From NCBI GenBank assembly GCA_951406725.2, contig OX597828.1, positions 6,572,001 through 6,636,000 on the forward strand: 64,000 bases of DNA. Direction: 5' to 3'. Shown here in pieces: positions 21,696 to 54,785 of this stretch (within the stretch, counting starts at the first letter, position 1; each line of letters starts with the position of its first letter). The DNA is from Octopus vulgaris (taxonomy: Eukaryota). The notes below the pieces were generated by a model. The model made no database searches. It saw only the letters and a program-made list of their open reading frames with translations, and was not told where the DNA came from. A program made the position numbers and the translations under genes.

Positions 21696-21883
21696 CGTTG
21701 GCGATATTTTTTCTCCGTATTCCCTTCCTTGGACCTTTCCTTTTTCTATGTTTCTGACGAAGTGCTCCGCTCGAAACGTTAAATCCTCCTTCTTTCTTTC
21801 CTTTCCTGGCCGTCCAATAACACTATACTTGTTCCACGTCCTCGCGTCGTTATGTTTTCTCTTTGTTCATGCTTGGAGTAACT
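21696..21883 (+). mobile_element. Hammerhead-bearing short retroelement (Penelope pLTR/retrozyme-like), family H1, copy 1
   Basis: ~185 bp homologous to 54570-54761 (minus strand); ends ggagtaact-(TA)n; contains a hammerhead core. Confidence 0.8.
21750..21784 (+). ncRNA. Minimal type-I hammerhead ribozyme motif (H1)
   Basis: GUUU-CUGACGA-A-GUGC-UCC-GCUC-GAAA-CG-UU-AAAU: stem I GUUU/AAAU, stem II with one mismatch, palindromic ACGU stem III. Confidence 0.65.
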
Positions 21884-21893
21884 ATATATATAT

Positions 21894-22145
21894 ACAAAAT
21901 AAGAAAATGGAGAAATACACCTTAATCAATAATCAACTACCAGATAATACCCAATCACATAATTTATTTACCCACTACATATGAACATCAAGGTCAAACA
22001 TAATAATATAGTACAAAACAATGCACATCAATGAGTAATATGATACAATAAGTACAATATGTATAAGTGAATATAAATAAATATAAATATAAATATAAAC
22101 TGTATCTTACAGCTGTTTCAGCCATGCAGATATGGGTATATTATT
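21894..22145 (-). mobile_element. Family H2 element, 3' part (hammerhead 3' half plus tail)
   Basis: Minus strand reads atacccatatctgcatggct-GAAA-cagctg-TA-agat, then a T-rich tail running into (TA)n at ~21893. Confidence 0.6.
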
Positions 22146-22293
22146 ATGTATATGTGTATATATATATATATATATAGGAGTATGGGTATATGCACTCATA
22201 TGTATGTGTATATTATATATTATGGGTATGTACCCACTCTTGTATGGGTGTACCTCCTCTGATATTCATATTTAGTTTAGTTTGTACTTTATA

Positions 22294-22410
22294 ATCTCTG
22301 AAGAAGCCTTGGGATATTTTTATGTCTCATTTATAACCACATATTAACTTATCACACCAGGCTAATATGAGCATAATGAGATACCCATATCTGCATAGCT
22401 GAAACAGCTC
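22294..22410 (+). ncRNA. Hammerhead-like motif with 96-nt hairpin stem II (H2), 3' end damaged
   Basis: AUCU-CUGAAGA-[AGCC…AGCU, 22305-22400]-GAAA-CAGCU(C); the sister copy at 22104-22139 (minus) supplies GAAA-CAGCUG-UA-AGAU, which closes stem I. Confidence 0.55.
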
Positions 22411-22595
22411 AAGGGCGGACTATACTCGAGGATTTACGGTATATTATATATATTACATATATAAATAATGTGAGTGAACGAACAAATGTAGCACTCAACA
22501 CCTTTGGGGGAAGTTACATACGCTTTTTCATAACGATTCAGCTTCACATAACGCATCCATACAACTGTAAGTCATATGGATCTGAATTAAACAGC

Positions 22596-50879: not shown

Positions 50880-51215
50880 TTTGGTCCATCCAATGGGATT
50901 TTGCAGCTTCCGTTCAGAGACTCTTTAACACAGTGGTTTTCAACCAGGGTTCCACGGAACCTTAGGCTTCCGCCAGTACAGTCTAGGGACTCCGCAAGAA
51001 GTTACAAAACTGCTAAAATCGGCAGTAATTTTTAATTCTCCTGTGCAGATATGTGTGCATAAGTCTATTAAATTATTGTACAGGGGTTCCCCGAGCCAGT
51101 GAAATGTTTCCTTGGGGTTCCGCTCCAGCAAAAAGTTTGAAAAGCACTGCTTTAACAGAACGCTTTGACTGACCAAGATTAATAGTAGAAAAAACTTTTG
51201 AAAGGTACTGAGCTG
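50880..51215 (+). pseudogene. Possible hAT transposase C-terminal dimerisation-domain relic, split by a MITE
   Basis: With the MITE removed it reads AASVQRLFN…(frameshift) PRLIVEKTFE, resembling SA-VERLFS…R-RL-x-x-KTFE. Confidence 0.35.
50931..51149. mobile_element. 219-bp hAT (Charlie-like) MITE with perfect 8-bp TSD
   Basis: TIRs cagtggttttcaacc / gtttgaaaagcactg (13/15); TSD ctttaaca at 50923-50930 and 51150-51157. Confidence 0.95.
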
Positions 51216-53344
51216 TTTAATAGGTTCTGGAATCAAAAGATGGCTAGACGAAATTCTGAATATAAAATATATATGGAATATGAAAATATAGTTTCCTGCT
51301 GCAGATGAGTATTTTTGTTGTGGAATAAATCATATGATATATTTTATTAATTTTACATCAAAATTATTGCGCTAGAGCACATTCGAACACAGCTACCCGA
51401 CGAGCTACAGTTCACTGCATCTCTGTGATTGTGTGTGACATATAGTGAATGTAACTATAACAAATTATGGCGGAGGATTCGATCGTTATAGAAATCTCCG
51501 ATTTTTCGTTTTTTTCTTGCCAATATTTACCTCTTTTGCAAATATACGTCGACAAAAAATAACCATATGCATGCACTAACCTCCACACATAAACGCATTT
51601 ATATATACACGTGTACATATGAATATATCTACATATCTACACACACACATACGTATACACATACACACAGAATTATATATATATATTATGTATATGTATA
51701 TATATATATATATTATGTATATGTATATGTAAAGTATGTAAGGTATCTCTCTCTCTTTCTCTCTCTCTCCCTCTCTCTCTCCCTCTCTCTCTCTCTCTCT
51801 CTCTCTCTCTCTCTATATATATATATATATATATATATATATATACCTTGAGTCTTTGAGAGAAAACGCATGTTAAAGATAAGTCGTTGTGGTATCGAAC
51901 CCGGAAACACCAAATTGTGGAGTGAACTGCTTAATCATACAGCCATTGTTGCACCTATATAATCACAACTGAAGGTTTTCAATTCAATTAGGACTAATGC
52001 CATCTCAATCTATTTCTAGTGATGTGCAATTTACACAGCGGGTATAGAAATATTCACACATTATGCATTGGTGGAATGAAACAAATGACATATTACACTT
52101 GTAATGAGTTCTTCATATCTTCATATCACAAATTAAAAACATGATTTTACCCTTACAGTTAAATAAAATTCTAGGGTGGAGTTAATATATGTTATTGACT
52201 GGAATATAGCACTAATAATAACGAGGTCTTAATTTTCATTATTTGACAGTGTTACCATTTCACTGTTCACTGTCTTAACATTTCTCTTTCATCTCTCCTT
52301 CGATTGAGAGCGGTTCCTTTTCCATATTCAGTGTCTTAGCATCTCTCTCTCACTCTCTCCCTCTTTCTCTCTCTTTCTTAACTCTAACTTTCCCTATTTC
52401 TCTTTCTCTCTTTCTTTCCACACACACACAGACATATTCACATATAAAGAAGGATGAAGCATGAATATGTAAATGAATATATGTATGCATCTTGGTAGGT
52501 AGATAGGTACTCACTATATATATTTATATATGCCTGTCTCTTTGGATGCGTGTGTGTTAGCGTGTGTTTGCGTGCGTGTGTCTATATCTACGTGTCTGTG
52601 TGTATGTGTAAGTGTCTGTCTGCGTGTGTGTGCGCGCGTGTGTGAGTATGTGTGCGTGCGTGTGTGTTTGTGTGTCTACATGTGTGTGTGTGTGCATACG
52701 TGTAAGCCTAATTTCCTCTCCACCCCTAAATGCAGGCTAATTAACCCCTCGAAAAGGGAATTGTTCTTAGTTAGCAAGCGTATTCCAACGTCATTATCTT
52801 AAAATTAGAAGAGCTGCGAGAGCAGATCAATGGAACTTTAGTGCCGCTGTAATCAAGCGGTTGAACGGCAATGATAATATAAATATCGGCAATTTCATCC
52901 AATTTGATACTTCGAATATTTCTTATGCATATTGCAATCCATTGTGCTAAAAGTACAGTAAGAACATCTGGAAATCATTAGTGTTCCATAACATTTCTTA
53001 CTGGATTGAAAGGCAAAGTGACAAAGTTCCGTCATTCGTCGTCTTACTTAAAAACGAGGTTGGACTGGAGATGGACTATTTTTCGGTCTGTTTCTCGGGA
53101 ATCTGACCTCCAATCACATCGTAGGTTTGCAAAGATATGGCAGTGTGGCTTCCTCATACAATATAAAGGACCACACCATGGATAGATTCAGAAATGATCT
53201 GATACGCTCGTTCAATATGCTGGATTTAAATATAAGAATTTTCCATAAACTTAACGACAGAAAACATCGTAAGTATTACAAATAACTGAAGAGATGTAAA
53301 ATGAAACAAAACCAGAAGACGGCATATAGTCATAAGATCCGCAT

Positions 53345-53750
53345 CTCTTTTACTCTTTTACTTGTTTCAGTCATTTGACTGCGGCCATGCTGGAGCACCG
53401 CCTTTAGTCGAGCAAATCGACCCCAAAACTTAATCTTTGTAAGCCTATTACTTATTCTATTGGTCTCTTTTACCGAACCGCTAAGTTACGGAGACATGAA
53501 CACACCAGCATCGGTTGTCAAGCGATGTTGGGGGGAACAAACACAGACACACAAACATATACACATACATATATATACATATACAGGACAGGCTTCTTTC
53601 AGTTTCCGTCTAACAAATCCACTCACAAGGCTTTGATCGGCCCGAGGCTATAACAGAAGACACTTGCCCAAGGTGCCACGTAGTGAGACTGAACCCGGAA
53701 CCATGTGGTTGGTAAGCAAGCTACTTACCACACAGCCACTCCTGCTCCTA
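53345..53750 (-). mobile_element. SINE family B, full-length
   Basis: ctcttttactcttttacttgtttcagtcatttgactgcggccatgctggagcaccgcc…gcaagctacttaccacacagccactcctgc. Confidence 0.95.
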
Positions 53751-54569
53751 TCTGGTGACTATAATTTAGAAACCAAGTGGCAGTGATAGGCAGAAGAGTA
53801 TTGATATAATCCTGATGTAGACTTATTTTCTACAATGCAACCTCCCTGCTATAAGGAAGCTTTTACCCAAAGTTTCTTTAAAATGCTTAATTATATGGAA
53901 ACCTTTCAACTCTTCTCCAGCATGAAGAGAGCTGGTGCACAGAAAGTAAACCATTCTAATTTAAATGTCCACAAAGTCTATTCGTTACTAAAAAAGTACA
54001 TAAAGTATTCTATACTTTCCGAAATGCATCGAAGCTTGATGAAACATAAATATCATATATTCTTTTGCTAACTATTCTCACCTAGATAATATCCTTGAAG
54101 CTTTACGCGTCGCAAGGAAATCTCTCATTAAGATTTTTCAAAACAGGATTTCAGCTGAAATTATCGGAATCAAGACACTTACTTGCTGAGACGTAGTAGA
54201 CGCAGCTACACTCAACCAACAAGATGATATTGAAAGTAGCAATGTATGGGTTATCATCAAGGATATTATGATTAATTTTAACAACCCATTAGGTCTAGAG
54301 ACACACTAAACTACTCTACATCTTTGCCTACTTTTATTTGGAAGACTAGAGACCAAGAGTATAACTGACTCGCTATAACATGGAACTTGATCGACAGAGC
54401 TTCTCCATATTCAGTGGACTTCACAAATTCAGATTCTACCTCTCAGAGTAACTGGATATTCCGAAGCATACACATAGGCATGCACTCATTCACACACACA
54501 CACACGCTCACATATACCAATACATGAACAAATATAGATTTATATCTATGATATATGATATATATATAA

Positions 54570-54785
54570 AGTTAATCCAAACGTGAAAACACAAAGAGAA
54601 AACACAACAACGCGAGGACGTGGAACAAATATAGTATTATTGGACGCCCAGGAAGGAAGGGAAGAAGGAGGGTTTTACGTTTCGAGCGGAGCTCTTCGTC
54701 AGAAACATAGGAAAAGGAAAGATCCAGAGAAGAGAAGACGGAGGGAAAAAAATCGCCAACGGTACACACGCGGTCACACTTTGAA
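54570..54785 (-). mobile_element. Hammerhead-bearing short retroelement, family H1, copy 2
   Basis: Homologous to 21696-21883; TA repeats on both sides. Confidence 0.85.
54672..54706 (-). ncRNA. Minimal type-I hammerhead ribozyme motif (H1), fully paired copy
   Basis: Minus strand GUUU-CUGACGA-A-GAGC-UCC-GCUC-GAAA-CG-UA-AAAC: perfect stem I (GUUU/AAAC), perfect stem II (GAGC/GCUC), palindromic ACGU stem III, GUA cleavage triplet. Confidence 0.75.

Follow-up and report, generated by a model that had tools for sequence, protein, structure and literature searches.

Probable truncated Penelope-like element ends with hammerhead motifs in Octopus vulgaris, and the prevalence of non-canonical cores among their relatives

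A stretch of 64,000 nucleotides of the Octopus vulgaris genome (GenBank assembly GCA_951406725.2, contig OX597828.1, positions 6,572,001 to 6,636,000, forward strand; hereafter the window) contains two dispersed copies of a repeat that carries a hammerhead ribozyme motif. The evidence as a whole is best explained if both copies are 5'-truncated 3' ends, or pseudo-long terminal repeats (pLTRs), of a Penelope-like element (PLE), a reading that we regard as very probable. PLE pLTR hammerheads, mostly in solo truncated copies, are already published, and the window copies are ordinary PLE debris. The wider interest of the family lies in copies, more than 20,000 of them and some recent, full-length and nearly identical to one another, with changes in the uridine turn of the core that lower activity in other hammerheads. 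The genome searched comprises 2.8 Gb in 227 contigs. We call the window copies' own subfamily A, its sisters B and C, and a distant lineage D. The features of the window that relate to the family are as follows.

21696 to 21883, plus strand: copy 1, very probably a 5'-truncated 3' end (pLTR) of a PLE on a sibling branch of subfamily A, 86% identical to copy 2
21750 to 21784, plus strand: hammerhead motif of copy 1, with canonical CUGACGA and GAAA letters and a GUU site, read from the sequence
21883 to 21894, plus strand: (TA)6 at the 3' junction of copy 1, a putative target remnant, from the sequence and the comparison of junctions
54570 to 54785, minus strand: copy 2, very probably a 216-bp 5'-truncated 3' end (pLTR) of PLE subfamily A, from genome matches
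54672 to 54706, minus strand: complete minimal type-I hammerhead of copy 2, from the sequence and the strict descriptor, fitting the consensus in the supplement of PMC4209133
54553 to 54569, minus strand: TA-rich run at the 3' junction of copy 2, from the sequence
54785 to 54817, no strand assigned: (TA)16 at the 5' junction of copy 2, which places the copy inside a TA microsatellite, from the sequence
4595 to 4656, plus strand: very short related pLTR 3' tip without a hammerhead, followed by TA/CA repeats, 88% identical over 67 nt to subfamily B

The initial annotation had recognized the same element at 21696-21883 (+) and 54570-54761 (-), and alignment of the two copies bore this out (86% identity over 193 nt, E 1e-59); self-comparison of the window gave no other long match besides this pair. 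Both copies close on TAACT followed by TA repeats, as had been described, and the 5' end of copy 2 lies at 54785, 24 nt beyond the limit first given. The motif of copy 2 (GUUU-CUGACGA-A-GAGC-UCC-GCUC-GAAA-CG-U-A-AAAC) consists of a 4-bp stem I, a bulged A, a 4-bp stem II, an ACGU palindrome and a GUA site; cleavage is predicted at 54676/54675, 106 nt before the 3' end of the element. A strict descriptor of the minimal hammerhead ribozyme (min-HHR; canonical core, stem II of at least 4, palindrome and stem I of at least 4) matched once in the window, at copy 2, and in 0 of 20 dinucleotide-shuffled windows, in keeping with the full core and perfect stems I and II first reported for this copy. 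The core letters CUGACGA and GAAACGU were correctly said to recur in copy 1, where stem II contains a U-U mismatch (21763/21771), stem I has a terminal G-U pair and the site reads GUU; this motif, with its predicted cut after 21780, does not match the strict descriptor.

The genome holds far more than the two copies of a ~190-bp element first described: there are thousands, with a fixed 3' end and variable 5' ends. Copy 2 as a query gave 4,224 candidates, and the 40 that were scored were all 96-98% identical apart from the self match. In 30 loci the 3' end was fixed and the 5' end variable, other copies extending 5' by ~20 nt, ~100 nt, ~400 nt, more than 1.5 kb or into an open reading frame (ORF), and walking upstream revealed a common CA-rich stretch of more than 1.5 kb. 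The nearest relative of copy 1 among the loci fetched was L102:1076-876 (91.5% over 201 nt), and copy 2 matched L061, a copy linked to an ORF, at 93% over 149 nt. TA runs of at least 8 nt were present at 25/30 3' junctions and 14/30 5' junctions against a background of 11%, and copy 2 is flanked by TA on both sides. In tandems, upstream pLTRs run from TTATA straight into the next unit, and TA repeats follow only the terminal copies. Because tandem pLTRs lack the TA run and TA is enriched at junctions, (TA)n is likely the insertion target rather than part of the element; (TA)n targets have been described for linker-bearing PLEs (PMC8557442). Inverted truncated partners also were present (L006 and L113). 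At three loci, pLTR tips of different lineages lie head-to-tail at one TA site (L007:1501-1860; L019:1340-1500, element-oriented; L021:1759-1893), D followed by A or C followed by A, with two hammerheads within 250 nt; these stacked tips are possible hetero-dimer substrates.

The shared 3' end leads into a coding element. It is collinear through a CA-rich 3' untranslated region (UTR) of ~2 kb into an ORF for a reverse transcriptase (RT) and a GIY-YIG endonuclease (EN) in L061 and L064, and RT (YIDD) and EN frames, both frameshifted, were found ~2 kb upstream of the motif in 2/8 long subfamily-A copies fetched. In 12 fetched stretches the motif flanked the ORF on at least one side, and in L099, L102, L103, L106, L107, L108 and L111 on both. 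An RT-stretch query gave 12,364 candidates, and open frames of at least 800 aa occurred in more than 40 of the 150 listed (hand count). Subfamily C is young: it has a 948-aa ORF, that of L107, and head-to-tail pLTR-ORF-pLTR units of 6,164 and 6,191 bp, which are 99.4% identical to each other and 97-98.7% identical to dispersed copies, each boundary being marked by the motif. The L107 protein contains KGLRF, DKG, YIDD, a C-x4-CxxC linker between RT and EN (CSRSRCNTC at aa 816), GLIY-CxxCxxC-YVGQ and two downstream His (a CCHH-type GIY-YIG), and a single ORF with RT and C-terminal GIY-YIG with CCHH was found in L107, L102 and L202. There were 546 protein homologues; for nearly all of the 120 listed, the alignment covered the greater part of the RT-EN region, with PF00078 present in most and PF01541 as well in some.

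The subfamilies A, B and C share 88-89% amino acid identity. In the RT tree A and B group with support 70, C joins them with support 100, and D is their sister with support 100; the homologues in this tree have no clade label and named Neptune or Nematis references are absent from it. The D lineage was discovered beside two A copies, is 56% identical in the tree region, has 2,838 candidates and is linked to the same kind of ORF, which scored above the RVT_1 cut-off. By the diagnostics in PMC8557442, the features of the sequence identify the element as the Neptune/Nematis type, a PLE with a C-terminal endonuclease (EN+). Two other assignments were rejected: Naiad/Chlamys elements have an N-terminal EN, DKA and no canonical hammerhead, and here EN is C-terminal, the motif is DKG and a hammerhead is present; Hydra elements have DKT, a CxCX5C linker, no CCHH and a length below 3 kb, and here there are DKG, CX4CxxC, CCHH and 6.2 kb.

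The initial annotation had left open a non-autonomous retroelement or a pLTR family. The pLTR part stands, and collinearity with the RT and GIY-YIG ORF speaks against the non-autonomous part. It is very unlikely, in our judgement, that the repeats are a non-autonomous ~200-bp retrozyme or SINE-like (short interspersed nuclear element-like) pLTR derivative with its own circular or rolling-circle RNA, served by PLE proteins in trans. Thousands of short copies, the failure to find an intact subfamily-A ORF and a preprint that derives animal retrozymes from pLTRs (10.64898/2026.07.22.740005) would fit such a derivative, as would the many best matches that start within ~10 nt of one point. That common start is, however, explained by the choice of best matches over the whole 216-nt query; the window copies start 24 nt apart, other lengths vary and one tip is only ~60 nt, and the loci fetched had no head-to-tail arrays of short units, their tandems being of 6.2 kb. 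Metazoan non-LTR retrozymes (PMC7229834; 10.64898/2026.07.22.740005) resemble the family in their type-I hammerhead, short palindromic stem III and high copy number, and differ as short tandem repeats without an ORF, whereas the copies here occur singly, differ in length and align collinearly with a coding element.

Several results weigh against the assignment of the window copies to a hammerhead-bearing PLE. No intact subfamily-A ORF was found; the two ORF-linked copies of this subfamily are broken and the intact frames belong to B and C. A tblastn search of the window with the L107 (subfamily C) protein gave no match, and the Pfam matches of the L107 protein were below cut-off. The Rfam scan proposed for the motif returned no hammerhead, either over the whole window at the gathering score or among 23 matches at E<=10 in 54400-54950. 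The predicted lowest-energy monomer is another hairpin that sequesters GAAAC (z -0.5 to -1.8), and the double hammerhead is predicted at -6.7 kcal/mol versus -22.5 kcal/mol for the best cofold, nearest-neighbor energies that omit the tertiary contacts of the core. The stems, finally, yielded a single covarying pair, which reflects one lineage split, and no compensatory change in stem II among the sequences compared. The alternative hairpin was considered as a conserved structure and rejected: it showed no covariation and its outer pair is lost in lineage D.

Conservation of the motif is clearest between subfamilies. A kept core with diverged flanks, as first claimed for the two window copies, is not apparent in that pair (3/35 versus 20/137 differences; Fisher p=0.26). 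Between subfamilies the 35-nt motif has diverged less than its flanks when A is compared with representatives of B, C and D (p=0.009, 1e-4 and 0.006, respectively), and the hammerhead motif is thus selectively conserved. Within subfamily A, 27 copies chosen by their upstream sequence had letters off the majority at 8/270 core, 36/891 motif and 207/3413 flank positions; so weak a difference between core and flanks is as expected for mostly neutral decay.

Positions are given in hammerhead numbering. C3, G5, G8, A9, G12, A13, A14, A15.1 and U16.1 were invariant in the elements aligned, across lineages 56% identical in protein, and the most variable positions were N7 (all four letters), H17 and loop II, the hammerhead's free positions. 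G8 and G12 are the general acid/base guanosines of the hammerhead. Variant cores retain the stems, GAAA and the ACGU palindrome, and the NUH triplet at the predicted site is GUA, GUU or GUC. In nine hand-picked sequences 95.8% of stem cells were paired, with the one compensatory pair in stem I: its outer pair changes from G-C to C-G between lineages (swapped in D, where loop II has 4 nt), and this position was paired in 98 of the first 100 scaffold matches described below (hand count). The covariation proposed as a check on stems I and II was thus seen in the former, where the sequences provide modest evidence for the hammerhead fold, and not in the latter.

The core itself departs from the canonical sequence in most of the family. 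A scaffold pattern in which positions 4, 6, 7 and 17 and loop II were left free had 24,793 exact matches in the genome, of which 2,125 (9%) had the canonical CUGANGA and ~91% did not; these counts refer to one stem-II scaffold, and exact matching biases them to young copies and leaves out other PLE families. A genome-wide consensus without CUGACGA, which had been named as grounds for doubt, was therefore found in part: the majority is non-canonical, and the stems, GAAA and palindrome are kept. CUGUNGA (A6U) made up 14,448/24,793 matches and the rest were mostly CCGACGA (U4C). Exact 30-mer counts were 2,632 for U4 and 7,519 for C4, with 0 matches for the reversed-pattern controls. The first 100 scaffold matches, from the first 10 Mb of contig 1, comprised 63 A6U, 26 U4C, 7 canonical, 2 A6C and 2 U4A cores (hand count), and N7 among the 63 A6U was A in 19, C in 13, G in 6 and U in 25. 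Minor scaffold families on contig 1 included one with canonical CUGAAGA and a UUU loop and another with a C4 core, a C-G stem I and an AAU loop, the latter possibly an independent U4C.

The U4C and A6U cores are not decay products, because C4 flanks intact B and C ORFs and U6 recurs in D motifs beside long frames. U6 was present in 19/19 motifs near 30 D nuclease matches and in 7/7 motifs from 9 stretches that contain long frames, one of them open over 1,015 aa. L111, an intact subfamily C copy that matches L107 at 330/331 aa, carries U4 in each of its pLTRs, so that U4 and C4 occur within 99.7%-identical young elements. Young elements one core base apart provide a natural allelic series for the role of cutting in transposition, and canonical CUGANGA descriptors undercount genomic hammerheads, ~91% being missed here. 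CpG decay after insertion was rejected as the source of U4 in subfamily A: U4 was present in 63/72 A-assigned copies, of which 30 loci came from the U4 query, with the adjoining CpG decayed in only 3, and in 23/27 independently chosen copies (hand count). The script that assigned groups put a few copies in two groups, so the B and C tallies are approximate. By parsimony on the tree, with its weakly supported A+B node (70), the canonical U4 of the window may be a reversion from C4; U4C and A6U are polarized only by this node and the literature consensus.

By analogy with other hammerheads, the changed cores likely weaken self-cutting, yet the elements that carry them are widespread. U4C has considerably lower activity in vitro and still supports viroid infectivity (PMC3088659), A6C has low activity, with an observed rate constant (kobs) below 0.1 per min (PMC3088659), and single CUGA-turn mutants of a type III hammerhead have low activity (PMC9901934). 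Rapid self-cutting is probably dispensable. A literature search found no report of U4C or A6U in PLEs, although such cores may have been described before in Lunse et al., Arkhipova et al. (2017) or supplement file 1 of PMC4209133; that U4C and A6U dominate in lineages that transpose is provisionally new. We advance tentatively, at somewhat short of even confidence, the proposal that a PLE radiation twice fixed uridine-turn changes, U4C and, in a sister lineage, A6U, with the fold, the catalytic guanosines and the dimer palindrome retained, and that the element's protein supplies the lost function or binds the hammerhead as a signal, the ribozyme having passed into a ribonucleoprotein (RNP) element.

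The motif might instead be a folded signal only, a protein-binding site, an RT recognition site or a DNA or promoter element that cuts in no lineage, with the U4 of subfamily A an incidental CpG-type reversion. This seems to us unlikely, if a serious competitor. It would account for the 91% of 24,793 scaffold matches that are non-canonical, for the low activity that single CUGA-turn mutations confer (PMC9901934), for a tree that suggests that C4 (B, C) is ancestral to U4 (A), and for the presence of both letters in near-identical young elements (L111 versus L107). The invariance of the core with variation at the free positions is, however, the pattern of catalytic selection, and U4C supports viroid infectivity and A6C keeps low activity (PMC3088659). 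At the other extreme, all three cores could be fully active in vivo through dimer, tertiary or protein rescue, with an obligatory cleavage that trims or circularizes the genomic RNA, a model put forward in PMC4209133. The strictly kept acid/base guanosines and palindrome and the motifs at both ends of each 6.2-kb unit suit this model, yet insertions hold the uncut site and ~100 nt downstream, core mutants were without effect on insertion in vitro, and RNA-seq ends were absent at the site of the Anolis element PAc (PMC11167929); we consider it improbable.

We favor a slow, protein-assisted ribozyme, with a purely structural role as its main rival, since G5, G8, G12, A13, A14 and the palindrome are fixed while N7 and H17 vary in the sequences. 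The tandem would be transcribed from the upstream pLTR and the transcript bound by the element's protein; GIY-YIG would nick (TA)n, and RT would start ~99-106 nt downstream of the hammerhead site, copy through it and often stop early, leaving copies like the two in the window. Insertions span the uncut site, and therefore the template RNA would be uncut or re-ligated there, in agreement with results in PMC11167929 and PMC4209133. Cutting would require two motifs to pair through their ACGU palindromes and probably also the element's protein, a role that we put at slightly better than even against a purely structural one, and the solo window copies would be passive relics. A Poseidon hammerhead cuts only with protein, and its core mutants still insert in vitro (PMC11167929); PLE min-HHRs showed no activity as monomers and little as dimers (PMC4209133). 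The role of PLE hammerheads has been called unclear (PMC8557442), and cleavage was reported to be dispensable in vitro (PMC11167929).

The closest known motif is the PLE pLTR min-HHR (Cervera and De la Pena, 2014; PMC4209133), which shares CUGANGA, an extra nucleotide between 9 and 10.1, G10.1-C11.1, a palindromic 15.2/16.2, an NUH site (GUU being common there), a short stem I, a U-rich 5' flank and a prevalence of solo copies left by truncated PLEs. In the part of that source consulted, U3-A8 is the sole core change named, whereas the sister copies here mostly have U4C or A6U and no compensating change is visible in them. Neptune/Nematis C-terminal EN+ PLEs (Craig et al., 2021; PMC8557442) share the single ORF with RT followed by GIY-YIG with CCHH, a CX2-5CxxC linker, DKG, partial tandems, inverted truncated partners and (TA)n targets; the present element differs in its long unit (6.2 kb in subfamily C) and its CA-rich 3' UTR of 2-3 kb. 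PAc Poseidon of Anolis (Frangieh et al., 2024; PMC11167929) likewise has a pLTR hammerhead, AT-rich targets and an insertion 3' end downstream of the ribozyme site. It belongs to another clade, and its start codon falls within the motif; in the present element the ATG is 419 nt beyond the site, and the core shows natural variation. For Octopus vulgaris, 31 recently active Penelope-like families have been listed, and the word ribozyme is absent from the available part of that source (PMC13282606).

The pLTR-5'UTR junction of the young subfamily (L107:1300-2300) is also covered by contigs of organisms B, C and D (labels of organisms, not subfamilies), and the family is therefore common to relatives. 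Assembled contigs from four sequencing runs span this junction with no joint or end cluster, though contigs cannot show ends. A distant PLE ORF (~30% identical to L107, with FLDD) lies near subfamily-A tips at L114:1979-3839, and a further hammerhead-like motif with a longer stem II occurs just downstream of a young C element at L106:7979 (+). In the window, a 163-aa stop-free frame at 62667-63158 (-) bears a weak resemblance to a PLE GIY-YIG region (24% over 67 aa, E 0.04), has no Pfam match and is possibly an old PLE remnant.

A third hammerhead in the window, missed by the initial annotation, lies at 45507-45612 (+) in an unrelated repeat family of 1,746 candidates, ~450 bp in length and with inverted partners. 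Its motif has CUGAUGA, a stem II of GGGU/ACCC with a bulged A before GAAA, a ACUGCAGU palindrome and a GUC site; stem I is 6 bp long in sister copies, and in the window copy a U-U lies beside the cut site. A tblastn search around 15 copies of this family gave no ORF within 1.5 kb, and the repeat is likely another pLTR. At 39612-39745 (-) lies a diverged 3' part of the same family (72%), without a hammerhead and ending in TA/CA repeats. The window also contains, at 3743-4097, 1.9 copies of a 184-bp unit, which we take to resemble an abundant octopus SINE.

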